27,685 nt of DNA from a virus (lineage: Duplodnaviria; Caudoviricetes). This document shows, piece by piece, positions 1 through 27,685 of the stretch. How positions within the stretch are numbered: the stretch's first letter is position 1; every line of letters starts with the position of its first letter. The notes under the pieces are model-generated. The model had not been told where the DNA came from, did not search any database, and was given only the letters and a program-made list of their open reading frames with translations. The position numbers were made by a program, and so were the translations under genes. The stretch lies in the IMG/VR virus record IMGVR_UViG_3300007863_000014, positions 1 to 27,685 of that record. One strand, 5' to 3'.

Positions 1-1
1 T

Positions 2-3000
2 TATCACACCAAGGGTGATGCTTACTGGAAAGATGACTGGAGAAACTTCCACATCCGTGCTTCGGATGACTCTTTCGTTCAGTGTGTCTCGGTCTTCGCT
101 GTTGGTTTCTTCGATCACTTCCTAATGGAAAGTGGTGGCGATATGTCCATCACGAACTCGAACTCTAACTTCGGTAATACATCACTTCACTCTATTGGTT
201 TCAAAGGATTCTCCTTCAACCAGGATAAAGGTGGATATGTTACTGATATTATTCCTGTTAAGAAAGTTGATACTAGTGCTTTTAACGAAGAAGATCTAAA
301 GTATTATCCTCTATCTAATCAGGCAACTAAAGTCAATGGTAACCAGACCAGACTGTACTACTCTGGTGATGATGTATACTCCCCATTCATCAAACCTGCC
401 ACCTCTATTGAAGGTTACAGACTCGGTGCTCTAACTAATGATAAGTTATTCCTAAAACTTCCAAAATTAGGAGGTGGTAATGCCATCTTCCAGTCTACTG
501 TTAGCCCTTCTGGTTTTAGACAGTATACTGCTTCTCTGGATACACTCAATCCAGATGGTGTCAACATTAATAATAATGCTCAGGATGCTTCTAACCTTAT
601 TGAAACGAACAAAGAGTTCATTCAAAGAGAAGCATACAACTACATCATCACTCGTTATCCTGCTCTACAGCAGAATAATAACATCACTATTTCTAAGTGT
701 GAAAGAGACATCGGTTATATTGTTGATGCTGTTATTCAAGACTTGAGAATTGGTGGCAACATCAATACAATTCAGGCAGCAGAAGGTTACTACGTTGGTG
801 GTACACTTTCGTACATTGATGGTGAGTTTAACGAATCAATCGAAGCATACGAGTACGTTAAGAATCTTACTATTGCTACGATGAGGAATTTTGATTATCT
901 AATCAAGAATCCTACGATCACCGCTGGTTCTCCTATTATTAATGTCGGTAGCACCGCTGGTCTACTAGTTGGTATGACTGTAAATCAGTATCCTTATACT
1001 GATACTGCTAATGGTGATGACGCTGCTACTGCTAACTTTACTAATGGCAGACTACGTGACACTGCTATTGCTCAGAACGTCCTGATTCCTAATAACGCTT
1101 ATATTAGACGTGTTATTGACTCGGAAAGAATTGAGATTGGTAATTCTCAACCTGTTCTGACTACAGATGCTCAAGGAAATCTTAGTGCTGCTTTTGGTAA
1201 CGCTGTTGTTGCTAACGCTCCTGGTTCTACTAGTGGTGCTTATCTTTACTTCGAGTTCCCACAAACAGCATCAGGATTAGATAGTGATGATGTTCTCACT
1301 GGTGGTTACAGTGACATCAATCCTGTAAGAGATAGCACGGTACTTCAAGATACCAGTGTTTGGGATGCTGCTGATAAAGGTTATCCTGAGTGTAATGATA
1401 TTCTTTCGCTAATTGAAGGTTACTTCAGTGAGTTCTTCCTAATCCTCAACAATGGTTTGACACCTCTTGGTGGTACTGAAGTTGATGCTCATAATCTAAT
1501 TCTTGGTAACAAGACTCTAATTGCTACTGAAGCAGTTGAGAGAATGCTCCTTGATCCTGCTAACTCTGGATTTACAATTCCTGGTGGTAATCAAGAATGT
1601 ATTGATGACGTTGAGTTGTTCCTAGAAGCAATTGCTTACAACATCAAGTACGGCGGAAATAGTAAAGTTTATGATGGTGCTCTACTTTATATCCAACAAC
1701 CTGGACTAATTAACGGAGAAAGAGACGAGTCCGTACAAGTTTACCTTGAGATGAGAGATCTAGCGATCTCTGCTATGAGAAATGAACCGATTACTATCCA
1801 AGGTTCTCACGGTCTAACTCAATTCATCGACAACAATGTCTTGGGTGATCTTTCTAGTCAAGCAGGAGTCTATGACTTTGCTAACGATTGTGCTGACATT
1901 GCTAGCTCCATCACCGTTTTTGGTGCTCTAATTACTCAAGCAATCGGATCAGATGCTGCTCCTGGTAACCTAACAGCTATCACCAGAACTGAACCTGCTT
2001 TCAACGTTGCTACTAGAGTTGAACCAGTTGTAGACACTGCTAACCTTGCTTCACGTGCTACTCTATTCACCATTAACACTGGTGGTTCAACATCAGATCC
2101 TCACCTATTTGAGACTGGAACTCCTATTAGATTGGTTCCTAAGGTAAGATCTGGTGTAGATCCTGCTACTGTTGATAAGCGTGTTATCAGACTTCCTAAA
2201 GGATTTAATACAAACACCATTTACTATGTAATTGCTCCTGGTAGATCTACAGAACCAGAAGATTACTCCGATGGTGTGACTTATCCCAACGTTTTTGAAA
2301 GAACTAACACAACTAAGTTGATGTTGGCAACGACAAGAGAGAACGCTGCTGCTGGCATTTACATGTACTCACCAGAGACTGACTCTGTTGATTATGATGT
2401 AGAGATTGCCCTTAACCAGTTTGTACTTGACGAGTCGTACAATCTTCACCAGTACATCTGTAACTTCCCAACTGGATTAACTGATCTTATCCAAACTGAT
2501 GTTCCTCACATCTTCGATGTTCCTGGAACTATCGATGTTGTTCATGAAGTATTCTTCAGAACATTTGGTTCTAACTCAACGCTACCACAAATCACTACTG
2601 GTGGTATTACTTCTGAAGTAGATATTAACAAGTATTACTATGTAAGATTCGTTACTCCAAAAACATTTGCTGTCTTCAACACTAAGGCAGAAGCAATTGC
2701 TGGTTCACCTAGAATTACGTTTGCTCCTAACTTTGGTGCTAACTTCTATACTTTTGCTAACAAACGTGTCTCTCCTGTCAAGTTTGACCCAACTAGAGAT
2801 GACTCTGCTCTAATTGCTGATCAGCAAGAAACAACTACAGGTCAGTGGTACATCAATACCACCGATGATTATGATCCTGCTATAAACATTCAAGCAAGAA
2901 TGAATGAGATCGGTCAAGATCTTAAGGATGCTCGTTCTAAGAACACTTCATTCAAGCGTCTTAAGGATGAGAGAACTGCTCAGGATAGAATCTATCGTTT

Positions 3001-6000
3001 ACGTTATGTCATTCCTAAGTATGCTGAAGGTGTACGTGATCCTCTCAATGGATTTGTTATCAAGGCAAGAACTGACGAAACTAGAAAACTTCTACCACAA
3101 AGAATTCTACTGAAGCCTACTGCTTCTGGTCTTGCTGATGTTGCTCTGTTTGAAACACAGATTCAATTAACTGCTGGTGGTAGTCTTGCTCAACAATTGG
3201 GTCTTCCTGCTGCTTCACTTGATCCTAACTTTGCTTACGATCCATATCTAAACACTCAAGTTAAAAAAGTTGCTTCCGATAGAGTTGCTTCTAAAACTTC
3301 TTTCAGCATCCAATCTGCTCGTCAGGTTGATGTAAGTGGAACTAACTATCTAGAACTAACTGTATTTGACCTTAGTATCACTGATGATGCTGTAAGAAAC
3401 GAACAGTTTGTAACGGTTAAGATCAACGCTCCTCAAGGTGGTGGTGGTGCTTTCAGAATTAACACTTCTGTTTCTAATAATCTCAATAAAATTCTCTGGA
3501 ATGGTTTCTCCTCAGGATTCGCTTTCGTACAAGGTTACTTTAACCCAGACGGCACCAACGATCACTACCTAGTTCTTAAAGGTCTAGATGGCGATGTTGT
3601 TAGATACGATAAAAACTCTGCTACTACATTCTCACAACCAGTTCTAGATGCTGATAACGATCCTGTATTGGATGGTAACGGTAATCAAGTTCTGATCTAC
3701 GCTACCCTACAAGCAAAACCAAACAGTGTTGGTTCACCTGATGACTCACTAAGCAAGTCTGATAGAAAAGACTATCTTTACAGCGATAAGAACTCTAATG
3801 TTCTTACCATGACTCCTGGTGATATCATCACTGATGATGACGGTAATGATTACGAAATTGCTTCTGTTGTGGATGCTGGTCAGATCGAAGATACATTCTA
3901 CATCTTCGACATTGAAGAGATCAAGCGTCGTATTCCTAACCAGCAAGAAGGTATCTACTACCTAACTTGTATTAAGGGTAACATCTCTCCATTCCCAACT
4001 GGTCCTGGAGTTGGTACTAACTTCCGTGGATTTAAATTCTCACAGCCTATCGGTCAACTATACCCATTGGATTATAAGAATGATCCTCTTTGGTTCCAAG
4101 TCCGTCCTGATGACACTAGAAACACAACAATTCTTGATACTGACCCAACGGTTTGTGCTGCTGATAACTTTGTTCATGGTCTCGTCACTACTAACGACTT
4201 CAAGAACAGTGAAACTAAAGAAGTTGTTCTTGACTTTATCGAGAACCCTGCCCTAAACAGATACGAGTATACTACTAATGCTGTTGAAGCACAAAGTGGT
4301 AACGCTGCTTCGGGTTCTGAAGATCGTTTGATTCCTATCTCTGGTGATTCTGTATATCCAACAGAGAACAAACTGTACGTCGAACTACGTCGTCCATCTA
4401 TTGCTAGATCTGGTAACCACACATTTGAGTATCTTGGATTCGGTCCTGGTAACTACTCAACTGGTTTCCCACTTCGTCAGGAAGTTGTTCTATCAGACAT
4501 TCAAGATTTCTACGCTCAGGCAAAACGTGAAAATGGCGGTATTGTCTTCTACACGGGTCTAAACTCTAACGGTGACCTCTATATCGGTAATCGTAAGATC
4601 AACGCTATCACAGGCGAAGAGACGTTCCTTGAGAAAGCAGAACTACTATCATCTGATGATGATGGTGGTGACATCGGTGGTTTGGTCACAACGTTTGAAC
4701 TTCCTGTTGCTTTTGAGCAAGAAATTACCGTTGACGGTAATGCTTTATTCAACAACCCAGTAACAATTAACGTTGATGACAACGAACCAAATGCTTTCAC
4801 TGTTGTCTCTAACGTTGATTCTAACTCTGGTGGTGATCAAACTCTAGACTCTGCTTCCTGGAACAGAAGTACAATTGCTTCTGAAGGTAATGTAGTTATT
4901 CATCAGAACCAGATCTTCTCTGCTATCTACAGACTTAACCCACGTGGTAGTTCACTACTATCTGGTCAAGACTATAGTTTCAGAACTCATGTTGATCAGC
5001 AAAGTGGAAACACCCCAACTAATAAAACACCTAATCAAACTAATTCCAACCTTGGAATTGAAGTTAAGTATGGCACTTTAGCAACTTCTGAAGGTCCTAC
5101 TGCTGGTGATATCCTACTTAAGGGTGAAGAAGTTGGTAGAACTGGTTCACTTGGGTGGATCTACGCTAACTTCTACCAGTCATTTGAAGCTAATATTGAC
5201 TCCACCACTGCTATTGGTGATGGTGGTCTACCAGCAGCTGCTGGACCTAAAGTCAGGTTTAACATGACTAATGGTGAATCTCCTGCTGCTAATGGTATTG
5301 AAGTTGGTAGCATTGTTAAGATTGCTGGTTTGGATGGTAGATTTATTAATGTCAACGGTATTAGATCGGTTGAGTCTGTACTAGGAGACTCTTTCGTTGT
5401 TAGTGCTCCTGTCGTAATCGACATGAGTGCCGTTGATGATCCTACTACGTTACCAGTTGATGCTGTTATTTCCGTATCACAAAGCAAATGGACTGAGACT
5501 TCTATAATTGGTGCTGAGACATTAAGAACTGATACCACAAATAATGGTGATTACAAATTAGGTATTAATACTCTAGCAAGATCTGCTCATAGCGACTTTG
5601 ATAAGGGATATAGTTCTGATGCTGTTGATCCAAGAGCAAACTTAGATGTTGTTGGTACAGTATACATTAGTGGTAAGACTCTTGCTCCTAATGGTTATGA
5701 TAATTTCCCACTACTTGCTAACAGATCGTTTGCCGAGCAGAACAATGCTCTACTAGTTGGTGGTGATTCAGTACAACCTAATCTGGAAGCAACATTTAGA
5801 GTTGCCACAACCAACGGTCTACAAGGTGATCATTCTGGACAGTCAACAGGAATTGCTAGAACTGTTGCTGGTGGTAGAGTTGGTATTAACGTCACTGATG
5901 GTGATACAAATCATACACTAACTGTTGTTGGTGACATGAGACTAACAGAGAATGCTCTGTTTGAAGAGAATCTACAGATCAATGGTGGATCTCTATCTAC

Positions 6001-8653
6001 GTTGTCACCATCGTTCAGTTTGCTTGATGGTGGTGCTACTACTGTATACTTTGCTTCTGAAGCAAGAAATCTCTTTATCGGCAACTCTGTTTCTGGTAGT
6101 GATACTTCAGAAGCTTCACCTCAGATCATTAACATCTCGCCAACCGCTGCTAATCAAGAAGTTAACATCGGTACATTTAGTCAAGATTCAGTCTTTAAGG
6201 TTCATAGTGGCGGTAAGAAGTCTTCTATGGCTCTCGGTACTTCTAATCTATCAGATACTGATGCTGTATCTGTTGTACGTATCGGTGGTGCTTACGCCAA
6301 GCAATCTAACTCTCTATCTGATGGTTCGGTTGTTAAATTACAGACCAGATTTACTCAGGTTGATGGTGATTTAAGCATTGGTACAGCACTTGTAGGTGGT
6401 ACTGGTATTGCTACTCTAAGTTCGCCTGCTCAACGAGTTAATCTATTCACGGTTACAACTTCTAAGTTGTATATTGGTAGTGCTGCTTCCAGAACCTTTA
6501 TCGGCGCTCAGGGTGGATTTACCCAGATCAATAATAGTCTGGTTGTTAAATCTGCTTCTACTCTTGAGGGTGATGTAACACTCTCTGGTGGTCTTAACTC
6601 TGGTGAGTTTGAAGTACGTAGAGGTTCGTTCTCTACTGATGCTGTAGCACATACACAAGGTGATAGCGACTTTGCTAACATTGACCTCTTTAGTAAGAGT
6701 GTTATTGGACAGTTCATTGACAAAGATTCCAGTTTCTTTGGTGCTGTTGCTGATGCTGTCGGTGGAACTGCTCCTAGCGATGAGTATTACCTACCATTTT
6801 CTACTCCATCCAACACTACGATCTTTGAAGTTGGTGCTTTCTTACTGATTGACCGTTCTAGACTAGCAATCTTTGATCCAACAGCATTTACTGCTAACGT
6901 TGGTCCTAATACTGCTACTATTACTAGTGTAACTAACGCTACTAGCTTCGACACTCTCAACACATGGGTAAGAATTGATGTAGATCAAGATGCTACCTTT
7001 AGTGATGGTACTAAGTATGCTCAGATCACTGCTATTACTGGAACTACATTTACTTTAAGTAAGTCTATCGCTTCTTCAGTTACTGCTGGACAGGTCAAGT
7101 TTACTGGTGGTGATTCTACTCAAGGTGCTGCTCCTGTTGGTGAACAGTACAGTGAACTTGTACAGATTCTTGAACTTACTAACCTGAACAACATCACTAA
7201 CGATTCTCTTCAGGTCAAAGTTAAGAGAGCAATGAACCAGCGTAATACCGTTGACGGTAGTATGCTTGCTGGAACTCCTGCTGATCTTCCTGGTTCTGCT
7301 GAAGCTTCTAGTTTCAAATATCTAAGAACGGATCACCCAGATAATGCTGAACTTATTCGATATGATCTAGCAGAAGATGTTAGCTTTATTGATCAGGTTA
7401 ATGGTCTTGGTGGCACTACAGGTGGTACACTACAAGACGTTAACACTGGTGACTTCTCTGGTTCTGTTGGAGAAGGCGACATTCTACGCTTCACTGACAG
7501 TGAATTGGCAATTATCACTGACATCAATACAACTTCTCCACAGAGATTTGTTGTTACTGATGGTTCTGATAACGCCCCAGTTGAACAGTTCTCCATTGAT
7601 TCTACAAATGGTGAAACTAGCATCTTAGGTAATGTAACTATTAATGCTAACTTTACACTTGCTGGATCTACAGTTGCTGGATCTCAGACACTTCAAATTA
7701 CCACTGGTGGTTCTAATCCTACAACCACATTCAGTGTTGATTCCGCTACTGGAGAAACATGCCTGAAGGGTGACTTTGGTGCTAGTGGTCCTAACTGTGA
7801 TAGGTTGACTGTCGATGCCGAGACTGGTCTCACTACTATAAGTATTGGCGACTTCTTAATTGGTAGTCCTACCGATCAAAAACTTATCCTTCAGAATAAC
7901 ACTGGTAACCTTACACTTGCTGGTCATATAACTGTTGAGGGAACTACCGAGAGTAAAATCTCTGGTCCTGTACAGATTGATGGTGGTAACTTCCAACTCA
8001 ATAAGATTGATCAGTCACCTGATTGGACTAATGGTGGTGCTGTTGAAGATGGAGATACGATTCACTACAGCGGTAACATTTACACTGTAGTTGGCAACGG
8101 AAACCTAGGTAACACTCAACCAACACACTCAACTGGTACTCTTGTCAATGGTGGTGTATCTCTTACCTTCCTCAAAACTAAGCAACCCGAAGAACTATTC
8201 GAGGTTGAAGTTGATGGTTCTATGAACTTCGCTGGTCAGGAAGGATTCTTCACACCAACTGGTGCTAGAAAGTGGGCGTTTGTTGGTGCTGGAGAAGAGG
8301 TATTTGATCTGGTATCTAATGTTAACTACTTTGTTTCTCCTTCTTCTGATACAACTCTCAAACTACCAGGAAACCCAGTCACGGGCGACTGTATCAGAAT
8401 CGTTGATGTTGGTGGTAATCTAACTTACAACGTTTCACTACGAGTAAGAGCTAAAGATAATATCGCTGTCCAAGGTGATAATACAAATGGCAATACTCCT
8501 GACCTAAGTAGTATTGACTACGACGGTGGTGAACTTGTCGTTCAGACCCCACATGCTGGATTTGGTCTGATATACCTAGGTAGTACAAACTTTGATGGAA
8601 CCACCACTGGTGCTCCATCAACAACACAAGGTTGGTGGTTGGTAGAAATCTAA
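2..8653 (+). CDS. Giant virion structural / tail-fibre protein, 5'-truncated (at least 2883 aa in window)
   Basis: The frame is open from base 2 (YHTKGDAYWKDDWRNFHIRASDDSFVQCVSVFAVGFFDHFL-MESGGD), so the track start at 125 is an internal Met. G/T/S/N-rich. Fibre-shaft motifs GINT..P.ANLDVVG and GINVT..HTLTVVG, and a C-terminal LKLPGNPVTGDCIRIVD...GWWLVEI domain typical of phage fibre ends. Lies upstream of collar-domain genes. Confidence 0.85.
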   Translation, partial: YHTKGDAYWKDDWRNFHIRASDDSFVQCVSVFAVGFFDHFLMESGGDMSITNSNSNFGNTSLHSIGFKGFSFNQDKGGYVTDIIPVKKVDTSAFNEEDLKYYPLSNQATKVNGNQTRLYYSGDDVYSPFIKPATSIEGYRLGALTNDKLFLKLPKLGGGNAIFQSTVSPSGFRQYTASLDTLNPDGVNINNNAQDASNLIETNKEFIQREAYNYIITRYPALQQNNNITISKCERDIGYIVDAVIQDLRIGGNINTIQAAEGYYVGGTLSYIDGEFNESIEAYEYVKNLTIATMRNFDYLIKNPTITAGSPIINVGSTAGLLVGMTVNQYPYTDTANGDDAATANFTNGRLRDTAIAQNVLIPNNAYIRRVIDSERIEIGNSQPVLTTDAQGNLSAAFGNAVVANAPGSTSGAYLYFEFPQTASGLDSDDVLTGGYSDINPVRDSTVLQDTSVWDAADKGYPECNDILSLIEGYFSEFFLILNNGLTPLGGTEVDAHNLILGNKTLIATEAVERMLLDPANSGFTIPGGNQECIDDVELFLEAIAYNIKYGGNSKVYDGALLYIQQPGLINGERDESVQVYLEMRDLAISAMRNEPITIQGSHGLTQFIDNNVLGDLSSQAGVYDFANDCADIASSITVFGALITQAIGSDAAPGNLTAITRTEPAFNVATRVEPVVDTANLASRATLFTINTGGSTSDPHLFETGTPIRLVPKVRSGVDPATVDKRVIRLPKGFNTNTIYYVIAPGRSTEPEDYSDGVTYPNVFERTNTTKLMLATTRENAAAGIYMYSPETDSVDYDVEIALNQFVLDESYNLHQYICNFPTGLTDLIQTDVPHIFDVPGTIDVVHEVFFRTFGSNSTLPQITTGGITSEVDINKYYYVRFVTPKTFAVFNTKAEAIAGSPRITFAPNFGANFYTFANKRVSPVKFDPTRDDSALIADQQETTTGQWYINTTDDYDPAINIQARMNEIGQDLKDARSKNTSFKRLKDERTAQDRIYRLRYVIPKYAEGVRDPLNGFVIKARTDETRKLLPQRILLKPTASGLADVALFETQIQLTAGGSLAQQLGLPAASLDPNFAYDPYLNTQVKKVASDRVASKTSFSIQSARQVDVSGTNYLELTVFDLSITDDAVRNEQFVTVKINAPQGGGGAFRINTSVSNNLNKILWNGFSSGFAFVQGYFNPDGTNDHYLVLKGLDGDVVRYDKNSATTFSQPVLDADNDPVLDGNGNQVLIYATLQAKPNSVGSPDDSLSKSDRKDYLYSDKNSNVLTMTPGDIITDDDGNDYEIASVVDAGQIEDTFYIFDIEEIKRRIPNQQEGIYYLTCIKGNISPFPTGPGVGTNFRGFKFSQPIGQLYPLDYKNDPLWFQVRPDDTRNTTILDTDPTVCAADNFVHGLVTTNDFKNSETKEVVLDFIENPALNRYEYTTNAVEAQSGNAASGSEDRLIPISGDSVYPTENKLYVELRRPSIARSGNHTFEYLGFGPGNYSTGFPLRQEVVLSDIQDFYAQAKRENGGIVFYTGLNSNGDLYIGNRKINAITGEETFLEKAELLSSDDDGGDIGGLVTTFELPVAFEQEITVDGNALFNNPVTINVDDNEPNAFTVVSNVDSNSGGDQTLDSASWNRSTIASEGNVVIHQNQIFSAIYRLNPRGSSLLSGQDYSFRTHVDQQSGNTPTNKTPNQTNSNLGIEVKYGTLATSEGPTAGDILLKGEEVGRTGSLGWIYANFYQSFEANIDSTTAIGDGGLPAAAGPKVRFNMTNGESPAANGIEVGSIVKIAGLDGRFINVNGIRSVESVLGDSFVVSAPVVIDMSAVDDPTTLPVDAVISVSQSKWTETSIIGAETLRTDTTNNGDYKLGINTLARSAHSDFDKGYSSDAVDPRANLDVVGTVYISGKTLAPNGYDNFPLLANRSFAEQNNALLVGGDSVQPNLEATFRVATTNGLQGDHSGQSTGIARTVAGGRVGINVTDGDTNHTLTVVGDMRLTENALFEENLQINGGSLSTLSPSFSLLDGGATTVYFASEARNLFIGNSVSGSDTSEASPQIINISPTAANQEVNIGTFSQDSVFKVHSGGKKSSMALGTSNLSDTDAVSVVRIGGAYAKQSNSLSDGSVVKLQTRFTQVDGDLSIGTALVGGTGIATLSSPAQRVNLFTVTTSKLYIGSAASRTFIGAQGGFTQINNSLVVKSASTLEGDVTLSGGLNSGEFEVRRGSFSTDAVAHTQGDSDFANIDLFSKSVIGQFIDKDSSFFGAVADAVGGTAPSDEYYLPFSTPSNTTIFEVGAFLLIDRSRLAIFDPTAFTANVGPNTATITSVTNATSFDTLNTWVRIDVDQDATFSDGTKYAQITAITGTTFTLSKSIASSVTAGQVKFTGGDSTQGAAPVGEQYSELVQILELTNLNNITNDSLQVKVKRAMNQRNTVDGSMLAGTPADLPGSAEASSFKYLRTDHPDNAELIRYDLAEDVSFIDQVNGLGGTTGGTLQDVNTGDFSGSVGEGDILRFTDSELAIITDINTTSPQRFVVTDGSDNAPVEQFSIDSTNGETSILGNVTINANFTLAGSTVAGSQTLQITTGGSNPTTTFSVDSATGETCLKGDFGASGPNCDRLTVDAETGLTTISIGDFLIGSPTDQKLILQNNTGNLTLAGHITVEGTTESKISGPVQIDGGNFQLNKIDQSPDWTNGGAVEDGDTIHYSGNIYTVVGNGNLGNTQPTHSTGTLVNGGVSLTFLKTKQPEELFEVEVDGSMNFAGQEGFFTPTGARKWAFVGAGEEVFDLVSNVNYFVSPSSDTTLKLPGNPVTGDCIRIVDVGGNLTYNVSLRVRAKDNIAVQGDNTNGNTPDLSSIDYDGGELVVQTPHAGFGLIYLGSTNFDGTTTGAPSTTQGWWLVEI

Positions 8654-10350
8654 TGGCAGGATACAACGTAGTTAAGACACAAAAAGGACTCCCTATTGGT
8701 TCACTACAACCATGGGGAGGAAATCTTTCTGAGATTCCAAATGGGTGGTTGTTATGTAATGGTGCCGAAATTGAGGCAGGAGACTATCCATTGTTAGCAC
8801 GTATTTTACGTGACACATACGGTGGTACTGCTTTTGGCGGTAATTTTCCTAATTATACAGGTACATTTAGGTTACCACAAACAAATAACAAAGCACTGGC
8901 AGATATTTCTACTGCTTATTTTGGTGTATATAATTCAACTACTGGGGTGATTCCTTCAGAAATTGATAATCCAAATGCTTTAAACATTATAGAAGATTTC
9001 CTTGGAGATTCTGTACCTGGATTTGAACCTGGAGATCTTGGTCCACCTAATGTTACAAATGCCAAGACAGATTTAAACTTTACATATACACCTGATCCAG
9101 CTGGAACTATTGTTAGTATTGTCACTACTGGTACAGGACCAACTGTAGCAACTACAAAACAGTATAAGAATGTAGTGGCAACTAACGGAACAAATGCTGA
9201 TACTGGAGCATCTGTTAGTGGTTTTGGTGCTTTATTTACCGTTGTTATTAATACCGATAATTCGTATGATATCATTCCTAAAGTCAAAGGACAGGGATAT
9301 GAAGTTGGAGATCAATTAACTGTTCCTGGAACTACATTTGCTGCTGACGGCGGCGTCTCCACTGCTAATGATATTGCTGTTACTGTTACTAAAGTTGGTA
9401 ACTCGTACTTTGAAGGTACTATCACTGGACAATCTATTATTGATGGATTCTCAATTAAAGAAGTTTTTATTGTTCCTAGAAAACTAGGAAGAGAACATTT
9501 TCCACAGCACTTTCACGAAGGAACATATAAATCAACTAACAGCGGCGATGCTGGAGAACAACCTGGTAGGGGTGCTTGTGTATTTGCCACCCCCGAAGTA
9601 AACTTCACTGAATTCTACGAAAGAGTTCATCCATGTCCATCTGGATACTTTGCTCCATTTGGACCTTATTGTCCCTTGCCAACTTCCCTTGATTGTACTA
9701 GTGGATTAGCAACTGGATTTTGGATTGGCAACTCTCCTACAAATAACGTCACATCTTTAAATAATTCTCCATTTACTACTGGTGCTGGTAGATATACTAT
9801 TGCTTCAGTTGGTGGCACACTGCCTGTTGCTGAACATGTACCATATGGTACTGGCAATACAGGTCATGGTCTTGGTAAAACTTGGTTTACTGGTGCTGGT
9901 ACACATTGGAACTTACGCCACACATCTGGTTCATCAGCTGATTCATCTGATGCTAACATGGTTGCCTTGAAAAACACGGGTAGATTTGCTCCTGGATATA
10001 GAGTTCCATTTTCAGATAACTCCCAAACAATTAAATCTCCAAATTTTGACTCTGGTACTAGTGGATCAGATAATACTCATGGAATTACAAAAACACTGTT
10101 CAATCACGCTGGTATCTCATTTTTGAATGATTCCTTGACAGGGGGAGGGGTTCAAGATGTTATTGAAGCACACGATCACGATGGATCATTTAATATTGTT
10201 TATGATGGTTCTAATATGGATGTTGTAGAACAACTACAAGTCCTGGCTCAACCTAATGTAACTCCAAATTCTATTGATGGAGCACTACAGATTACATTTA
10301 CCACAAGAGTGGCTTCTGTTACTATTACTAACTTAATTAGAGCATACTAA
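8653..10350 (+). CDS. Phage tail-collar domain fibre protein (565 aa)
   Basis: ATG at 8653 overlaps the upstream TAA (TAATG) and is preferred over the track start at 8632. N-terminal collar motif LPIGSLQPWGG...IPNGWLLCNGAEI...YPLLARIL...YGG...FRLP. Two HxH motifs (QHFHE, AHDHD). Ends LIRAY. Confidence 0.88.
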   Translation: MAGYNVVKTQKGLPIGSLQPWGGNLSEIPNGWLLCNGAEIEAGDYPLLARILRDTYGGTAFGGNFPNYTGTFRLPQTNNKALADISTAYFGVYNSTTGVIPSEIDNPNALNIIEDFLGDSVPGFEPGDLGPPNVTNAKTDLNFTYTPDPAGTIVSIVTTGTGPTVATTKQYKNVVATNGTNADTGASVSGFGALFTVVINTDNSYDIIPKVKGQGYEVGDQLTVPGTTFAADGGVSTANDIAVTVTKVGNSYFEGTITGQSIIDGFSIKEVFIVPRKLGREHFPQHFHEGTYKSTNSGDAGEQPGRGACVFATPEVNFTEFYERVHPCPSGYFAPFGPYCPLPTSLDCTSGLATGFWIGNSPTNNVTSLNNSPFTTGAGRYTIASVGGTLPVAEHVPYGTGNTGHGLGKTWFTGAGTHWNLRHTSGSSADSSDANMVALKNTGRFAPGYRVPFSDNSQTIKSPNFDSGTSGSDNTHGITKTLFNHAGISFLNDSLTGGGVQDVIEAHDHDGSFNIVYDGSNMDVVEQLQVLAQPNVTPNSIDGALQITFTTRVASVTITNLIRAY

Positions 10351-11249
10351 TGGCAGTATTTTACACAAACGAAAGAGCGAGATATGGTGGTGTCACAGGC
10401 ACTATCATACCTTTTCCTGTTAAATTGTCGGATGTTAATGTTCCTGATCAAGGAAACTTCAAGACTTTACTTCCTGCTGGTTTTTTGAGGTGTGATGGTT
10501 CAATTCTTGCTGCTGTTGAATATCCAGTTTTAGCACAGATATTAGGAACAGGTCAAAACTCAAAATTTAGAAGACCTGAGCAAGAATTAACTAATAATCA
10601 ACTCGTATTACCCGATATAGGATCCAAATATATTCAAGGTGGTAATGCTTCTGGTACTTATCTAAATGATCGAGTAACAAATGAGAATTCAACTAAACCA
10701 TATAGAGTTGGATCTGAAGTTAGCGTGGTATCATTAATTGGTGATACCACTACACTAACATATAGTGGGGAGTTTGAAGTTATTTCTCCTGGTAATAATG
10801 AATTTATTGGCAACCCTGCTTTTGGTACTACTACAACAGATGACAGAACACTAAAAGCATTTCTGTCTGAACAAAACTTTCAATCCCATGGTCATGAAGC
10901 TGACGTTGGAGTCTTTAACTATCTTGGAAATTGGGCAGATTCTATCTTTACTGGTGAAACCACTGGTGCTTCACAGGGTGGTAATGATGGTCAGAATGAG
11001 GGTTCTAATGAAGCAATTACTATTCAATCTCCAACTGGAGCAGCTGCTGTTGTATCTCATGGACATCTAATTGATTTCCCGTCATCTACTACTGTTTCAT
11101 TAAATAACAATTTAAAATATTCTTTTGTAAATACTGATGTTGATGCTTTTGGGTTGAAGTCAGAAGTAACTCTTACTACTAATGATCTTGTAAAACTAGA
11201 TGAAGCAACACCTCCATTTATTTTAGTAGAATACCTTATCAAGATTTAA
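10350..11249 (+). CDS. Phage tail-collar domain fibre protein (299 aa)
   Basis: TAATG coupling. Collar motif TGTIIPF...LPAGFLRCDGSIL...YPVLAQILG...LPDIGSKYIQG. Two HxH motifs (SHGHE, SHGHL). Ends PPFILVEYLIKI. Confidence 0.88.
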   Translation: MAVFYTNERARYGGVTGTIIPFPVKLSDVNVPDQGNFKTLLPAGFLRCDGSILAAVEYPVLAQILGTGQNSKFRRPEQELTNNQLVLPDIGSKYIQGGNASGTYLNDRVTNENSTKPYRVGSEVSVVSLIGDTTTLTYSGEFEVISPGNNEFIGNPAFGTTTTDDRTLKAFLSEQNFQSHGHEADVGVFNYLGNWADSIFTGETTGASQGGNDGQNEGSNEAITIQSPTGAAAVVSHGHLIDFPSSTTVSLNNNLKYSFVNTDVDAFGLKSEVTLTTNDLVKLDEATPPFILVEYLIKI

Positions 11250-11250
11250 A

Positions 11251-12810
11251 ATGCCAACAGTAAGTAGATCGTCACCTGGTAGTCAGTCATTTAATATTCC
11301 TAATAGTGGTTATAATATCACTGCTACAGTTCGTGGAGCTCGTGGTGGTAGGGGTGGTGACGATGCTGAAGCAAACGGCGGCAACGGTGGCACTACTACA
11401 CAACAATCGTTTACATTTAAGCCTAATCGGAATTTTATCAGTAGAAATTTTACAATAACTGTTGGTAATAATGGTAGTAATGGTGTAAATAATCAACCAA
11501 ACGCTGCTGGTGGTAACGGTGGTAGTGGTGTTGGTTCTGGTGGTCGTGGAGGTAACGCTGGCGATCCTCCCTATTCTGGCGGCGGTGGCGGTGGCGGCGG
11601 AGGATCCGCTGTTTATGATGGCGGAGCATTAGTTATTGTTATGGGTGGATCTGGTGGCGGCGGTGGTGCTTCCGATAATAAAAATGGTGGCGGCGGTGGC
11701 GCTCAATCTACTAATGCTTCTTCAGCAGGTAGTGTTGGATCTGGTAACGGTGGACAAGGCGGCGACCCTGGTGGTAATGATGGTGGTGGAGGCGGCGGCG
11801 GCGGAGGCGGTGCCAGCGGCGGCGGAGGCGGCATTGATGGACGAGATAACAACCGAGGTGGTGGCGGCGGTGGCGCTGGTGCTTCTCGATATAATATTAA
11901 CTACATGAATGCTGGTAGTTCCAGTTCTGGACAAGGATCATCAGACGGTTATGTATCAGTTTCTTGGCAGAATGCTAATGTTCAAATCAATTCCTTCACT
12001 GCCACTCCTAATCCACAAAATAGTACAGCAGGTCTTCCTCAATACTCAACTACATTAAATTGGCAAACTACCTATGCTTTTAATGGGGTTACTCTAACAA
12101 GTGATGCTGGAGAATCTTGGTCTTATAGTAATGGAACAAACTCTAGAGTTATTACTAACTTACCTCAATCGGTGGCAGGTACTAGTAGTCCTTCTCAAAG
12201 AACATATACTTTAACTGCTAGTAATGCTACTAGTTCTAAAAATAAAAATGTTAAAGTAAAAGCTCGTAATGATAACACGTTATCAAATAGTTGGACAACA
12301 TCATTTTCTAATTTACAACCCTCTACTGTTGTTGACTTAACAATAGGAACAGCTGCTGGTATTGATATGTCAACAACAGTAAACGCTGCTGGTGCTGGTA
12401 ATTTTGTTGGATCTGGTGGATCTTTTGCTGGATCAAAAAACTTTACTAATGGACAAACAATACAGTTAAGAACTACTACCTTGCCATATAATACAGATGT
12501 CAGTGGTGAAACAGGTATCTATGGCAAAACTAATTCTAAGACAGTAACTGTTAGTTATCCTGGTGGATCGGTTGATATTACTGTAACGACAACAGCTCCT
12601 AGGATTCGTGAGGACTTTGATTATGCTGATAATGTTAACAAATATCCATATGAAGATATTGATCTTATAACTAATTCACCAACACAACATTTAGCATCAG
12701 CACAGATTAATGCTGATGATATTGAGATTCCCATGGAAATAAAAGTTGACAAACCAGGCGCTCAGGTGAGTATTAATGGTGGTGGTTGGCAAAACGCTAG
12801 GAGTATATAA
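11251..12810 (+). CDS. Glycine-rich adhesin-like protein, paralog A (519 aa)
   Basis: N-terminal polyglycine domain (about 11330-11960), then a C-terminal region shared with 12810-16109 and 16111-17265 (PNPQNST...LPQS.AG...NDNT.SN.WT.SF...PYEDID...DDIEI...VSIN.G.WQ..R.I). Confidence 0.8.
   Translation: MPTVSRSSPGSQSFNIPNSGYNITATVRGARGGRGGDDAEANGGNGGTTTQQSFTFKPNRNFISRNFTITVGNNGSNGVNNQPNAAGGNGGSGVGSGGRGGNAGDPPYSGGGGGGGGGSAVYDGGALVIVMGGSGGGGGASDNKNGGGGGAQSTNASSAGSVGSGNGGQGGDPGGNDGGGGGGGGGGASGGGGGIDGRDNNRGGGGGGAGASRYNINYMNAGSSSSGQGSSDGYVSVSWQNANVQINSFTATPNPQNSTAGLPQYSTTLNWQTTYAFNGVTLTSDAGESWSYSNGTNSRVITNLPQSVAGTSSPSQRTYTLTASNATSSKNKNVKVKARNDNTLSNSWTTSFSNLQPSTVVDLTIGTAAGIDMSTTVNAAGAGNFVGSGGSFAGSKNFTNGQTIQLRTTTLPYNTDVSGETGIYGKTNSKTVTVSYPGGSVDITVTTTAPRIREDFDYADNVNKYPYEDIDLITNSPTQHLASAQINADDIEIPMEIKVDKPGAQVSINGGGWQNARSI
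12395..12479 (+). repeat. 85-bp near-identical direct repeat, copy 1 (copy 2 at 16844-16928)
   Basis: CTGGTAATTTTGTTGGATCTGGTGGATCTTTTGCTGGATC is identical for 40 bp; 4 mismatches over 85 bp. Confidence 0.9.
12537..12573 (+). repeat. 37-bp perfect direct repeat (copy 2 at 16992-17028; partial third copy near 15842-15860)
   Basis: TAAGACAGTAACTGTTAGTTATCCTGGTGGATCGGTT occurs in paralogs A and C; AGTAACTGTTAGTTATCCT also occurs in B. Confidence 0.9.
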
Positions 12811-16109: not shown

Positions 16110-16110
16110 C

Positions 16111-17265
16111 ATGCCAACTGTAACTTTTTCCGTGGGCAGAGCTGCCGATAATGAAAATTTTATATCAATAGGTTCCTTCACCGTAGGACCAAACGCTGGT
16201 AATGTCTCCTGGTTTTACGGTCCTGGAAGTTATAATGGAATTTCTAGTTATGGCAATGGACCTGGTGGTACAGCTTTACGATTTAGTGGAAATACTGTTG
16301 GGTTAGATGACAATCAAGGCCAATATGATTCGGATGGCAATCCTCAATTTGATAGTGATTATAATGACTTAACGGCAACAATTACTTCAGGTAATGCTAT
16401 TTTTACTGGAGGTCAATTATATGTTTACTACGATCCAGTTACAATTTATAATTTTTATGCTAGCCCAAATCCACAAAATAGTACTGGTGGCACTCCTCAA
16501 TATTCCACTACGTTGTATTGGAGTTCTGTTAATGGTACGTCAGCGACGATTACTAGTTCTGCTGGAGAATCTTGGGGAGTAGGAACATCTGGCAATAGAG
16601 GCATTTTTAATCTACCACAATCAACAGCAGGTAGTAATAGTCCAAGAACTAGAAATTATAGTTTATCAGTATCTAATCCTAATAGTAGTAAATCTGCGTC
16701 TACTAGTGTTTCAGTTAGAAATGATAATACACCATCAAATGGTTGGACTACATCGTTCACTAATTTAAATCCTAGTACGTTATATACACTCAATATTGGC
16801 ACTCTTTCTGGTGTTGATATGCCTACCACGATATCAACAACATCTGGTAATTTTGTTGGATCTGGTGGATCTTTTGCTGGATCTAAAAACTTTACTAATG
16901 GCCAAGCAATTCAGTTAAGAACTACTACATTACCATTTAATACTAGTATGTCAGGCGTAGCTTCTAATGCTACATATGGAAATACAAATAGTAAGACAGT
17001 AACTGTTAGTTATCCTGGTGGATCGGTTAATGTTACTATAACTACCAAAGCACCTGTAGTAAAAGAGACATTTAATTACGCTGATAATGTAGGTAAATTT
17101 CCATATGAGGATATTGATCTTGTAGTTAACACCCCACTCGAATTTACTACATCCGCTAATATTACTGCTGATGATATTGAAATTGCTCAAGAAGTTAAAT
17201 TGGATAATCCTGATGCTCAGGTCAGCATAAATAGTGGAACATGGCAAAATGTAAGAGCAATTTAA
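16111..17265 (+). CDS. Adhesin-like protein, paralog C: short unique N-terminal domain + shared C-terminus (384 aa)
   Basis: About 110 unique N-terminal residues, then a region closely similar to paralog A (e.g. identical GNFVGSGGSFAGSKNFTNGQ and TNSKTVTVSYPGGSV). Confidence 0.8.
   Translation: MPTVTFSVGRAADNENFISIGSFTVGPNAGNVSWFYGPGSYNGISSYGNGPGGTALRFSGNTVGLDDNQGQYDSDGNPQFDSDYNDLTATITSGNAIFTGGQLYVYYDPVTIYNFYASPNPQNSTGGTPQYSTTLYWSSVNGTSATITSSAGESWGVGTSGNRGIFNLPQSTAGSNSPRTRNYSLSVSNPNSSKSASTSVSVRNDNTPSNGWTTSFTNLNPSTLYTLNIGTLSGVDMPTTISTTSGNFVGSGGSFAGSKNFTNGQAIQLRTTTLPFNTSMSGVASNATYGNTNSKTVTVSYPGGSVNVTITTKAPVVKETFNYADNVGKFPYEDIDLVVNTPLEFTTSANITADDIEIAQEVKLDNPDAQVSINSGTWQNVRAI
16844..16928 (+). 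repeat. 85-bp near-identical direct repeat, copy 2
   Basis: Aligns without gaps to 12395-12479 with 4 substitutions. Confidence 0.9.
17227..17233 (+). promoter_or_regulatory. Possible late promoter (ATAAATA) embedded in the end of paralog C
   Basis: 33 nt upstream of ATG 17267. The equivalent positions of paralogs A and B (attaatggt, atcaatggt) lack it. Confidence 0.4.
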
Positions 17266-24392: not shown

Positions 24393-24776
24393 ATGTACGT
24401 TACATCTAGAAACTTTGCCGAGTGGATTAAACACTATACAGAGGCAACACAATCAACAGTTGTACTATTAAGAACTGTAGGACCAGATGGTGTAGATGAT
24501 GCTACTAAAGCAACTGCTATCTATTCAGCATATTATTTGAATATGCAGTCTGAGAATCCAGCAATCTTTGATAAACTATTGTATAATGAGTTTACATTTG
24601 TTGAATTTACCACTGAGGAGTCTGCTGATGAGTTCTGTAGAGAGAATTTCCCCAATACTAAACCAGACGATCTGGATTATTTCATTCAATACGTTATTTT
24701 TAGTAATGGATTGTACGTTAGAGGAAACGATGGGATGACTGGACTCCGAGAACCACAACCAGAACCACTTCCATAA
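24393..24776 (+). CDS. Hypothetical protein (127 aa)
   Basis: ATG 4 nt after the previous stop, normal acidic composition, ends just before the terminator hairpin. No recognisable motif. Confidence 0.75.
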   Translation: MYVTSRNFAEWIKHYTEATQSTVVLLRTVGPDGVDDATKATAIYSAYYLNMQSENPAIFDKLLYNEFTFVEFTTEESADEFCRENFPNTKPDDLDYFIQYVIFSNGLYVRGNDGMTGLREPQPEPLP

Positions 24777-24817: not shown

Positions 24818-24841
24818 AATAGGGTAGTCAGCAAGGCATTC

Positions 24842-26089
24842 ATGCTCACCCTTCGTCCTCATCAGCAGCGAGCACTTGCTGCTCTTGAGAACAATTCCTT
24901 TGGTCAGGTCATTGTCCCCACAGGTGGTGGCAAGACTCTCGTCATGATCAAGGACACTGAGCGTCGTTTGCTCGCCGCCACCACGCCACAGACTATTGTA
25001 GTGGTCGCCCCACGTATTCTGCTGGCAAACCAACTGTGTGATGAGTTCTGGAATGCTCTCAACGGTGTTGTGAATGCTGAAATGTTCCACGTTCATAGTG
25101 GTGAAACTTCTTTCGGAAGCAGCACTAAAGTTCAACAGATCCAGTGTCACCATGGTGTATGTAAATCTGCTGGTATTCATGAGATTATCTTCACCACATA
25201 CAATAGTCTCCGTCGTATTGTAGAGTCTGACATTGATATTGACTGTATCTATTACGATGAGGCACACAATGCTGTCCGTCGTGATTTTTTTGAGTCTGTA
25301 CTCAATGTTGAGTCTAAGTCCTACTATTTCTTTACCGCCACACCTAAGCACACTCGTAATGCTTACGGACGTGGCATGAACAATAGCACAGTATATGGTC
25401 CTGTGCTTGAGAGTGTGCCTGCTCCTGAACTGATCAACAACGGCAGCATTCTTGCTCCTGAGGTAATATCTTATGAGGTTGACTTTGAGAGAGTCAAGGG
25501 TCAGTTCTCCTATGAGTCTGACAAAGACACACTCACCAATCTAATTGAAGACATTGATGCTGATGGCAATAAGATCTTAGTTGCTGCTCCTAGTAGCAAG
25601 GTCATGTTTAATCTGCTTTCCAAGACAACTGTGCTTGACTTCTTTCATGAGAAGGGTTATGATGTACTCCACATCACCAGCAAGTATGGTGCTTATGTGA
25701 ACAAGACTAAGGTCAACCGTGAGCAGTTCTTCGACACGTTCAATGCTTGGGGCAAAGATCCAAACCGTAAGTTTGTGATCTTCCACTACAGCATCCTGTC
25801 TGAAGGCATCAACGTTCACGGTCTAACACATTGTGTGTTCCTTCGTCAACTCGATGTCATTCAAATGGCACAAACTGTTGGTCGTGTCATCCGTCTTAAC
25901 AAAGATGACGCTGCTGACATTGCTTGTGGTAAGATTATCCCAGGCAAGTTTGACATGTACCGTAAGTCTTGTGGTAAGGTCATCGTACCTGTCTTCAAGA
26001 ACTACGGTGCTCACACTATCAAACGTCTTCAAAACCTTGTCGAGACTATTTTCGTCAAGGGTCTTCCTGCTGTTTCCGTCACTGTCTGA
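24842..26089 (+). CDS. Superfamily 2 DEAH helicase/ATPase, ResIII-like (415 aa)
   Basis: Q-motif LRPHQ, Walker A PTGGGKT, motif Ia VVAPRILLANQ, Walker B YYDEAH, motif III TATP, motif V SEGINV, motif VI QTVGRVIR. Confidence 0.93.
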   Translation: MLTLRPHQQRALAALENNSFGQVIVPTGGGKTLVMIKDTERRLLAATTPQTIVVVAPRILLANQLCDEFWNALNGVVNAEMFHVHSGETSFGSSTKVQQIQCHHGVCKSAGIHEIIFTTYNSLRRIVESDIDIDCIYYDEAHNAVRRDFFESVLNVESKSYYFFTATPKHTRNAYGRGMNNSTVYGPVLESVPAPELINNGSILAPEVISYEVDFERVKGQFSYESDKDTLTNLIEDIDADGNKILVAAPSSKVMFNLLSKTTVLDFFHEKGYDVLHITSKYGAYVNKTKVNREQFFDTFNAWGKDPNRKFVIFHYSILSEGINVHGLTHCVFLRQLDVIQMAQTVGRVIRLNKDDAADIACGKIIPGKFDMYRKSCGKVIVPVFKNYGAHTIKRLQNLVETIFVKGLPAVSVTV

Positions 26090-27060
26090 TGAACTCAACT
26101 CGTATTCCTGGTCACCAAATTCTCGATTGGCATCAAACTATGGGTCTCTTGGATAACAAAGAGACTCTACTATCTGGTGGTGATGCTATTCGATCCAACG
26201 TAAATACTGTTGAAGTATCATGGGAAGAAGCATCTATTTTTTATAATTCTCAGTCTACATCTGATCGTGCCATGATTCGTAAGTCTGGTCAACAGGGTCA
26301 CCTTGGTTGGTGGGATCCAGTCAGTGAATCATTGACAGATAATCCTACACAACAGCGTGGCATTCTTCTGTGTCAAATGTATCTGAAGCAAGATCGTAAG
26401 TGTGCTTATACTTTGAGTGGACCACATCATATTCTTGACTTACAAGTTGAGCATATCTCACCTAACGGTGGAGATCATCCAGATAATATGATCTTGACTC
26501 TATACAATGTCAATGAGAATCGTAAACAATCCACCATGGAGGTGTTTGTTGATCGTTGGCAGAAACGTGCTGACAAAGGAGAGACAGAGTTTAATAGTTG
26601 GTATGCTGATACGCTCAAAGCATCTGCTAAAGGACAGAAAGAGAAGGTCAAGATCCTCGCTATGGATGAGGAGGATCTAGCAAAGTTTGCTCCTATGTGT
26701 GCTAAACGCTATGAGAAGTACATGTGGCGTAATATTGGTATGTCATCACTACAACCATTTCGTTTAACTAAGAAGGGAGAAGTACGTTCTGGTGGTAGTC
26801 AAGGCAATTACAAACCAGTTCTTAATACTATTCTACACGAATACTTGTACGGTAACAAGGAATTAGCACAACAGATGTTCAGTGCCATACGTATTGCTGC
26901 TTCTAGTTATGTAAACGGAAGAATCAACAACGACACATATGCATATATTATGTGTGACTGTCTAGACTTGTCAGATCACCAACCTGTAGGATATAATAGA
27001 GATAAGTTTACTGCCAAAGTTCTTCGTAGCACCTATTCATGGCCCCATCTCAAAAAGTAA
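26089..27060 (+). CDS. HNH (H-N-N) endonuclease (323 aa)
   Basis: YLKQDRKCAYT...LQVEHISP...DHPDNMILTLYNVNENRK is a beta-beta-alpha-metal motif. TGATG coupling to the helicase. Confidence 0.8.
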   Translation: MNSTRIPGHQILDWHQTMGLLDNKETLLSGGDAIRSNVNTVEVSWEEASIFYNSQSTSDRAMIRKSGQQGHLGWWDPVSESLTDNPTQQRGILLCQMYLKQDRKCAYTLSGPHHILDLQVEHISPNGGDHPDNMILTLYNVNENRKQSTMEVFVDRWQKRADKGETEFNSWYADTLKASAKGQKEKVKILAMDEEDLAKFAPMCAKRYEKYMWRNIGMSSLQPFRLTKKGEVRSGGSQGNYKPVLNTILHEYLYGNKELAQQMFSAIRIAASSYVNGRINNDTYAYIMCDCLDLSDHQPVGYNRDKFTAKVLRSTYSWPHLKK

Positions 27061-27685
27061 CTAATCATTCTCTCTACCGCTATGCTGGTGGTAAGAATCG
27101 AATGAAGAAAGATATTATCAAGATCATTCGTGATGTCAATCCTGGCATTGAATATCTTGTGTCACCCTTCTGGGGTGGTGGCAGCACTGAAATGCTGATC
27201 GCCAGTGAGGGAGTCAAGGTCCAAGGTTATGACGTGTTTCGCCCACTAGCAGATTTCTGGGAGATCGTGGTGGGCAATGGTGGTGCTGCTATCCTTGCCG
27301 ACATGGCAGAGGAGCATTTTCCACTAGTTGACAGTGATCACTACAAATCATTCCTTCCAGGATTAGATAGTGAGGACAAGTGGGAGCGAGCACTGTCATT
27401 TTACCTTGCAATCAAGGGTTCGTACTCAGGTAAGATCGGATGTTCTACTGTTCGTAGTAGAGCAGAGTTCCGATTAGTGGGTGTGAATAAACTTAGGAAT
27501 TTCCATGCTCCCAACGTGTCGTTTGCCTATGGTAGTTGCTTCGACACCATCCCAGCACATGAAAATGACTTCTTGTACCTGGACCCACCATATTATGAGA
27601 CTGTGAGTCACTACTATGGTAAAGATGGTGCTCTTCATAAGGCATTCAATCATGAACAGTTCTGTGAGACACTGAAGCAACATAA
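27039..27685 (+). CDS. D12-class (Dam-family) DNA N6-adenine methyltransferase, 3'-truncated; absent from ORF track
   Basis: My translation from ATG 27039: MAPSQKVTNHSLYRYAGGKNRM (motif X)...YLVSPFWGGGSTE (motif I)...VQGYDV...DFLYLDPPYY (motif IV)...FNHEQF. Open to the window end; overlaps the HNH gene by 22 nt. Confidence 0.93.
   Translation, partial: MAPSQKVTNHSLYRYAGGKNRMKKDIIKIIRDVNPGIEYLVSPFWGGGSTEMLIASEGVKVQGYDVFRPLADFWEIVVGNGGAAILADMAEEHFPLVDSDHYKSFLPGLDSEDKWERALSFYLAIKGSYSGKIGCSTVRSRAEFRLVGVNKLRNFHAPNVSFAYGSCFDTIPAHENDFLYLDPPYYETVSHYYGKDGALHKAFNHEQFCETLKQH

Follow-up and report, generated by a model that had tools for sequence, protein, structure and literature searches.

Depletion of the degenerate word YGCR in a T4-like cyanomyovirus fragment that carries a candidate HNH nuclease and a predicted partner methyltransferase

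Chloroviruses, which infect eukaryotes, encode restriction-modification enzymes of four-base specificity that are used on host DNA, including CviJI (RG^CY) and CviRI (TG^CA), and they protect themselves by heavy methylation rather than by site removal. Restriction-site avoidance is known in phage genomes (excerpts of PMC6286503) and in cellular genomes, where the avoided sites are those of a restriction-modification system that the genome itself encodes (excerpts of PMC4687349). For the methylation half of such systems, M.CbeI of Caldicellulosiruptor bescii, the partner of CbeI, was annotated as an adenine methylase and then shown to put an N4-methyl group on the inner C of GGCC (excerpts of PMC3425538; PMC8616854), and it is 57% identical to the cyanobacterial DmtB of Anabaena, an alpha-class N4-cytosine methylase that also acts on GGCC (PMC8616854). 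Here, we analyzed positions 1-27685 of the IMG/VR virus record IMGVR_UViG_3300007863_000014 (one strand; the assembly comprises this contig alone), a stretch of 27685 bases hereafter called the window, which is strongly depleted of the degenerate class YGCR (Y, pyrimidine; R, purine), comprising the words TGCA, CGCA/TGCG, and CGCG. Near its end lie 2 overlapping genes, ORF323 (P0001; 26089-27060, plus strand), an open reading frame (ORF) of 323 codons encoding a candidate YGCR endonuclease with an HNH nuclease part and a conserved C-terminal helical domain, and MTase2 (27039-27683, plus strand), the 5' part (215 of ~280 codons) of a gene that runs past the end of the window and encodes a D12/alpha-class DNA methyltransferase, the predicted partner of ORF323.

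The predicted pair resembles CviJI and CviRI in being virus-encoded and of short specificity, degenerate as in CviJI, and the CviRI site TGCA is itself one of the YGCR words. As in known cases of site avoidance, short words, palindromes among them, are strongly under-represented through the use of synonymous codons; in contrast to those cases, the word here is a degenerate class, and the nuclease is likely encoded by the phage itself. We put at roughly 60% the probability that the phage itself bears, at 26089-27683, a nuclease and a methylase that are both specific for YGCR, and that it avoids this word in its own genome. Site avoidance as a phenomenon is already known; new are the YGCR word, an HNH family of which no member has been described, the constant company of this family with a methylase resembling M.CbeI, and its occurrence in 2 unrelated phage types. 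We know of no enzyme of YGCR specificity. Full-text literature searches, which did not cover REBASE, returned "YGCR" only as a gene name among the matches listed; none linked "RGCY" with "Synechococcus," and searches of the cyanophage and restriction literature yielded nothing on a YGCR pattern.

Loss of YGCR words from the window

An exact recount reproduced the 18 YGCR sites that an initial annotation, made by eye from the sequence, had listed in the window (TGCA 11, CGCA 2, TGCG 4, and CGCG 1), and direct counting likewise gave 0 sites in bases 1-12932 (plus strand), a part that holds 4 tail-fiber or structural genes. The depletion persisted under the codon-shuffle and Markov checks that the annotation had proposed. 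Across 300 synonymous codon shuffles, in which each protein sequence and the codon usage of each gene were preserved, ~127 YGCR words were expected, meaning that about nine-tenths of them are gone, with TGCA at 11 observed versus 82.5 expected (z -11.5), TGCG/CGCA at 6 versus 39.3 (z -6.2), and CGCG at 1 versus 4.9 (z -2.0). The corresponding counts under a Markov model of third order were 11 versus 122.8 for TGCA, 4 versus 50.7 for TGCG, 2 versus 21.1 for CGCA, and 1 versus 8.7 for CGCG. The 4 genes spanning 2-12810 contain no YGCR against ~50 expected from within-gene codon shuffles (31.9 + 9.1 + 3.3 + 6.0), and such shuffles are conservative because codon usage itself is already bent by the avoidance.

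The words are removed through context-dependent synonymous codons. All 61 GCA or GCG alanine codons in 1-12932 follow a purine, as had been noticed, and all 233 alanine codons preceded by a pyrimidine are GCT or GCC; cysteine before a purine is written as TGT (36 times) and never as TGC. The TGCA at 24544 lies within ATGCAG (24543-24548, plus strand) and, on inspection of the reading frame, proved to be forced by a Met-Gln dipeptide (ATG-CAG), again as annotated. At the protein level, Met-Gln and Met-His dipeptides numbered 1 versus 4.2 expected, which is not significant (P 0.074). Around the residual YGCR sites of the clade (526 distinct contexts, both strands), we found no marked flank preference, so no longer motif is indicated; the 18 sites left in the window likewise share no flank.

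Low CpG, mutation bias, codon-pair preference, or separate TGCA and CGCG enzymes could in principle thin these words with no single YGCR agent at work. The CpG observed/expected ratio of the window, 0.52, fits such a view, as does a mild YGCR deficit in related phages that have no ORF323 gene (see below). However, these biases are preserved in the shuffles and in the Markov model, and the counts that they predict are nevertheless 7-10 times higher. Other CpG-containing tetramers are normal or enriched, with GGCG at 78, CGCT at 50, AGCG at 24, and CGCC at 20 occurrences and GGCG/CGCC together above the shuffle expectation (98 versus 76); low CpG alone, which the initial annotation had offered as a way in which its proposal could fail, is thus not the cause. 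The alternating tetramers TGTA and TACA are common (144 and 211 in the window), as had been stated. Enzymes cutting TGCA and CGCG could not remove TGCG/CGCA, because these are not palindromic, and the 3 words rise and fall together across the 102 phage records compared below. We consider an origin without a single YGCR agent scarcely credible.

Coincidence of the depletion with the gene pair

By its sequence, the window is a fragment, from the tail-fiber region, of an uncultured T4-like cyanomyovirus, because its helicase is 62-64% identical to the helicases of cultured Synechococcus myoviruses and its nucleotide matches are to cultured Synechococcus myoviruses only. This superfamily-2 DNA helicase (24842-26089, plus strand; Pfam ResIII, DEAD, and Helicase_C) was a landmark for fetching relatives. 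IMG/VR loci were fetched around relatives of the helicase (59 loci), of ORF323 (30), and of the methyltransferase (63), and 2 cultured phages and 9 whole contigs were added. Grouping by contig left 102 separate records, of which 99 are IMG/VR contigs and the others are the window and the 2 cultured phages. Labels beginning with L denote fetched loci and those beginning with G larger contigs, and a record with an ORF323-family gene is called a carrier.

YGCR depletion and the gene pair coincide one-to-one in these records, and the depletion is spread over whole genomes of relatives. All 40 carriers had a YGCR observed/expected ratio of 0.015-0.21 (median 0.11), and their pooled 1.11 Mb held 948 YGCR sites versus 7673 expected. 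In contrast, out of 38 records that span the syntenic place without an ORF323 gene, 37 had ratios of 0.63-0.80 and 1 had a ratio of 0.29. The remaining records, 23 that do not reach the syntenic place and 1 broken off inside the gene, were left unscored; 12 of the 23 were purged (0.03-0.23), 8 of them ending within the helicase gene and 4 beginning within or just before the methylase gene. In the 98%-complete, 190-kb G007, 94 sites were found versus 1110 expected, with CGCG at 1 versus 52, and the 157-kb G001 had 206 YGCR sites versus 1047.

In pooled carriers versus non-carriers, the ratio was 0.12 versus 0.71 for TGCA, 0.13 versus 0.63 for CGCA/TGCG, and 0.17 versus 0.71 for CGCG. A strong difference between the 2 groups was seen in exactly these 3 of the 136 tetramers, the next largest being CCGG at 0.16 versus 0.23. 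Equal depletion of a nonpalindromic word and 2 palindromes argues for one degenerate specificity rather than several enzymes. The initial annotation had proposed selection by a sequence-specific defense or DNA-modifying enzyme of degenerate YGCR specificity; the single specificity is supported, the 3 words falling together and to the same degree in carriers, but the agent is probably not a host defense, as it is with nuclease and methyltransferase genes of the phages themselves that the depletion goes together.

Host restriction-modification is nevertheless the textbook cause of site avoidance (excerpts of PMC6286503), and a YGCR enzyme of the host, or of a mobile element resident with the phage, might select against the sites, with the phage pair being a lineage marker or a captured counter-defense methylase beside an unrelated nuclease. 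Many further palindromes are avoided without a known phage nuclease (RGCY, CCGG, GGTACC, CGTACG, GACGTC, and GTCGAC), which speaks for such an agent, and so does the kinship of the carriers, since shared ancestry together with a shared host could produce the coincidence. In the helicase tree, the carrier group of G001 branches with non-carriers (support 95/80), and its branch is long; a single clade of all cyanomyovirus carriers had a p value of 0.069 in the approximately unbiased (AU) test, so that their monophyly is not rejected and several independent gains within cyanomyoviruses are not claimed. The tree offers only 2 independent contrasts, both concordant, and a sign test is without power for that reason.

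The firm independence of the pairing rests mainly on G005. The ORF323 homologue encoded by this contig is distant (26% identical, with an hhalign probability of 99.9) and lies directly upstream of a methyltransferase 60% identical to MTase2. The contig is not T4-like, having a DnaE-type polymerase, GroEL, and a further restriction-modification pair of the MvaI/BcnI family. Its avoidance repertoire includes GGCC (0 versus 154) and ACGT (14 versus 72), AGCT, AGCC, and CCGG are not avoided, and in its ranking of tetramers by depletion, CGCA, TGCA, and CGCG take places 2, 4, and 5. An unrelated phage with another repertoire and the same pairing speaks against selection by a host or a co-resident element. 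As to the further pair of G005, the MvaI/BcnI-family nuclease lies with an N4/N6 methylase at L125:11076-12634, and the contig also has a third D12 methylase. G008 has a very divergent HNH gene (112 bits versus ~500) beside an 80%-identical methylase, and its YGCR ratio was 0.18.

About 20 records provide a second argument against a host agent. Their methylase, 55-56% identical, follows the helicase, but the HNH gene gives way to an unrelated ORF of 286 codons, and their YGCR ratios were 0.66-0.79; a 136-kb contig of this methylase-only group had no ORF323 relative anywhere. With G005 and G008 purged and records with the methylase alone unpurged, the depletion follows the nuclease gene and neither the methylase nor the surrounding genome. 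Moreover, a protective methylase should let carriers afford the sites, and the opposite was seen. The 286-codon ORF, exemplified by L137:9133-9993 and present in ~20 sister loci, is without a family and lies at the place of the HNH gene between the helicase and a 56%-identical methylase, and this place may take up different partner genes in the manner of a cassette.

A pattern-based scan of one genome per species found no cellular ORF323 homologue, which also speaks against a host enzyme. The corresponding methylase scan returned only a gammaproteobacterial gene of 30% identity and a 1.2-kb contig from an assembly of Synechococcus lacustris. The methylase on this contig (L183; NZ_PXVC01000205.1, 1162 bases) has 56% identity to MTase2 and is of the type found in non-avoiders; the contig probably stems from a phage present in the culture and so hints at the host of the non-avoider group. 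Among cultured phages, S-TIM5 (L185, 115000-164999), whose host is Synechococcus WH8102, showed no tetramer avoidance, with a lowest observed/expected ratio of 0.76, CCGG at 91 versus 102, and GGCC at 107 versus 109, whereas Sf-FR1, from the same host strain, had CCGG at 0 versus 42 and CGCG at 0 versus 26. At least the RGCY and CCGG purges seen in Sf-FR1 are therefore not obligatory for all phages of this strain, although the DNA of S-TIM5 might be protected otherwise. Taken with the phage-encoded pairing, we regard selection by a host or co-resident element as unlikely, though a serious possibility.

The candidate nuclease, its predicted partner, and a proposed mechanism

ORF323 contains the motif QVEHI..NGGDHPDN..L..NVNENRK, which we take to resemble the HNH motif of Cas9. 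Residues E121, H122, N133, and N142 do not vary among 21 homologues, and D117 hardly varies, giving a catalytic His after an acidic residue, followed by 2 conserved Asn/His positions, as in HNH nucleases. A set of 5.8 billion proteins held 24 relatives, all unnamed, and cultured phages held no homologue except a weak partial match in S-TIM5. That match is gp079, annotated as a virion protein, which is 27.5% identical to the N-terminal and HNH part of ORF323 and adjoins a gene noted as a DNA methylase. The structure model of ORF323 reached a predicted local distance difference test score (pLDDT) of 90. Its core aligned best with the Gme HNH nicking endonuclease (PDB 4h9d; Z 5.3, 78 residues aligned, root-mean-square deviation 3.1) and with Cas9 HNH domains (Z 4.1-4.8; both with VIA-align), and a Foldseek search of the model against the PDB gave no match at E <= 0.001. 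Weak sequence matches were obtained to the PHROG endonuclease VII (E 2.8e-4), PtuB (E 0.025), and the HNH stretch of IscB (E 1.7e-4), and the ORF323 profile matched only Cas9 HNH among PDB sequences (E 0.04-0.27). In the protein atlas, ORF323 stands beside HNH clusters at 0.90-0.91.

Profile searches recovered 114 remote relatives at E <= 0.001. Out of 24 tested, 3 passed Pfam HNH cut-offs, namely P0038 and P0041 (HNH_4) and P0047 (HNH). Scans of viral and metagenome DNA for the context of the remote relatives P0031, P0035, and P0137 returned nothing, and the alignment of remote relatives was too divergent to serve as a search query. The C-terminal 130 residues of ORF323 are strongly conserved (GMSSL, GGSQGNY) and match only generic helical bundles. 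Compared with 4h9d and the HNH domains of Cas9 and IscB, with which it has the catalytic motif DxxVEHIxP...N...N in common, ORF323 has ~100 extra N-terminal residues and the 130-residue C-terminal helical domain, is without a zinc ribbon, and is always paired with a methyltransferase. We consider ORF323 a candidate YGCR endonuclease, a specificity suggested by its co-occurrence with the depletion.

The start of MTase2 (27039) overlaps ORF323 by 22 bases, in the order nuclease to methylase, and an MTase2-family gene adjoins the HNH gene in 37 of the 40 carriers, the other 3 records ending before the methylase. The 2 genes are thus adjacent and inherited together, as in type II restriction-modification systems. 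The fragment in the window scored 46.9 bits against Pfam PF02086 (cut-off 22), and the full-length copy at L004:12198-13040, on the sister contig of the window, has a DPPY motif (DPPYY). The nearest solved relative is M.CbeI (7M6B), with E values of 6e-20 for the single sequence and 7e-31 for the profile; in bits, the profile scored 111 to 7M6B, 37.6 to DpnII M1, and ~23 to the Dam enzymes of Escherichia coli and T4, and the single-sequence E value against GATC-specific Dam enzymes was ~3e-4. Assignment as Dam (NCBIfam TIGR00571) was rejected at 53.6 bits, below the cut-off of 114.85.

Like M.CbeI and DmtB, MTase2 would combine the D12 fold and DPPY motif with a predicted four-base xGCx target; it differs in its ~30% identity to M.CbeI, in a target that would be YGCR rather than GGCC, and in its partner, an HNH protein of an undescribed family. 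Since this relative methylates the cytosine of an xGCx word, MTase2 could in principle protect CGCG too, a word out of reach for an adenine methylase. By analogy with this one enzyme, the product of MTase2 is probably N4-methylcytosine. MTase2 is also ~30% identical to the usual cyanophage "dam," and G001 carries both genes. The ordinary "dam" of G001 (C1:135777-136493; L090:15777-16493) matched M.CbeI at E 2.9e-43 and DpnII M1 at E 4.5e-10, and genes of this kind may encode GGCC cytosine methylases, in genomes that nevertheless avoid GGCC.

In the mechanism that we propose for a phage-borne pair, ORF323 would cut YGCR and MTase2 would methylate the cytosine of the same word, probably at N4, so that together they would act like a type II restriction-modification system against the DNA of the host or of rival phages. 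Phage DNA would be made faster than it is methylated, unmethylated YGCR would be at risk from the phage's own nuclease, and the sites would be selected out; segments imported from non-carriers, such as the gene at 12810-16109, would arrive with sites and lose them later. Modification-dependent HNH nucleases of the McrA type exist, and a mark-and-cut variant can be drawn from them, in which the methylase would mark YGCR in host DNA and the HNH protein would cut the marked sites, obliging the phage to lack the word. Such a variant explains why the sites must be removed despite a methylase and why the depletion follows the nuclease. It needs 2 steps, however, where one suffices, since host DNA is already unmodified at YGCR, and neither sequence nor structure gave a sign of a domain that reads methylated bases, the C-terminal domain having only its helical-bundle matches. 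We judge it very unlikely.

Several observations weigh against a self-avoided, phage-encoded YGCR nuclease. The fold matches of ORF323 are weak (Z ~5), and it had no match to Pfam HNH models even at E <= 10. Its specificity is read from co-occurrence among carriers that are kin, those among the cyanomyoviruses perhaps forming a single clade, as the AU test allows. The partner methylase should make avoidance unnecessary, and the removal of 80-98% of the sites is explained only by analogy with the self-avoidance described for cellular genomes (excerpts of PMC4687349). The 5-20% of sites that persist in carriers would be cut by a fully active four-base cutter, and the mild deficit of the non-carriers (0.63-0.80) needs another cause. 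Finally, G006/L151 has a related methyltransferase and partial depletion (CGCA 0.11, CGCG 0.42, and TGCA 0.48), and no ORF323 homologue was found in its 56 kb, which represent 32% of the genome.

In absolute terms, CGCA/TGCG in G006 numbered 14 versus 132, and TGCA and CGCG were merely halved. The locus (G006/L151:8815-11077) belongs to a phage with ClpX-like and thymidine-kinase genes, its MTase2-family gene has an insertion of ~80 residues, and this gene sits behind a 362-codon ORF that has neither a family match nor kinship to ORF323.

T4-like cyanophage DNA has ordinary cytosine, without the modified cytosine of T4. On a broader and more tentative view, to which we give somewhat less than even odds, T4-like cyanophages would distinguish self by "restriction through absence": short-word nucleases, here the predicted YGCR HNH enzyme with an N4-cytosine methylase as a back-up, would shred the DNA of hosts and rivals, the word would have been stripped from genomes of 190 kb, and large phages of unrelated kinds would have acquired the module. 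Should ORF323 cut YGCR, its four-base specificity would be one for which our literature searches gave no precedent and for which we know of no enzyme. The pair would then add an HNH nuclease of compact, uncharacterized architecture along with a second cytosine methylase of the alpha class, each directly useful as an enzyme, and would bear on a problem of marine virology, namely how cyanomyoviruses destroy host DNA and exclude competitors without self-harm.

Other avoided words and mosaic patches

The window is purged, to an extent equal to that for YGCR, of further words that the initial annotation had missed, and word counts with the Markov and shuffle models assign the loss of YGCR, RGCY, and CCGG to the whole of 1-27685, without regard to strand. 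RGCY has 49 sites in the window, comprising AGCT (30 versus 123 expected from shuffles), GGCT/AGCC (12 versus 87.5), and GGCC (7 versus 21.8), and CCGG has 0 versus 27.5 in codon shuffles. Together with the 3 YGCR words, CCGG, GGCT/AGCC, AGCT, and GGCC make up the 7 most depleted of the 136 strand-symmetric tetramers, and 827 of the 894 GC dinucleotides of the window stand in an RGCR or YGCY context. RGCY and CCGG were avoided in nearly all fetched cyanomyovirus relatives, with lineage-specific exceptions, which were L047 (0.69) and L031/L032 (0.6) for RGCY and ACG-2014e, L004, L008 (3 versus 8), L023, L040, L034, L031/L032, and L041 for CCGG.

The window runs from giant tail-fiber-type genes (Collar, PA14) through a tail-fiber chaperone, the superfamily-2 helicase, and the 323-codon ORF to the start of the D12 methyltransferase gene, and the Pfam matches on its proteins are Collar, PA14, ResIII/DEAD, and D12 methyltransferase. 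The least purged gene is the structural gene at 12810-16109 (plus strand; 1099 amino acids, PA14 domain), which holds 10 of the 18 residual YGCR sites, versus 17.8 expected from within-gene shuffling. Over the first 1.1 kb, it has 88.8% identity to the non-carrier Synechococcus phage ACG-2014e, and over the first 1.5 kb, 80-89% DNA identity to the non-carriers ACG-2014e/j; local G+C is 0.36 versus ~0.41 elsewhere in the window. Recombination probably brought this gene in more recently. Aligned over 1.6 kb, the window and ACG-2014e had 4 and 6 sites, with 1 in common, and no ongoing site loss was visible; we can thus only infer a loss of sites after import, because this direct alignment showed none under way.

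A comparable patch was seen in L004, whose helicase is 98% identical to that of the window. All 19 of its CCGG sites lie in the tail-fiber genes (101-8079) and none in the other 8 kb (8080-16153), which fits the acquisition, by exchange, of a tail-fiber module from a lineage without CCGG avoidance. In such mosaic genomes, a site-rich patch could be of practical use as the mark of a recently imported gene.

Longer and additional words were also avoided. The 6-base palindromes GGTACC (0 versus 143), CGTACG (0 versus 36), GACGTC (0 versus 33), and GTCGAC (0 versus 36) were absent from 716 kb of pooled carrier DNA, in which AGCGCT (2 versus 48) and CTCGAG (6 versus 31) were scarce. CATG was purged in L042, L043, and L045 (0 versus 83-84) and in L044 (0 versus 60), and GTAC in L055 (2 versus 40) and L061 (4 versus 57); AATT had an observed/expected ratio of 0.08 in L073, and TCGA numbered 4 versus 23 in L031. 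GATC was over-represented in the window, at 157 versus 115 in codon shuffles (z +6.4).

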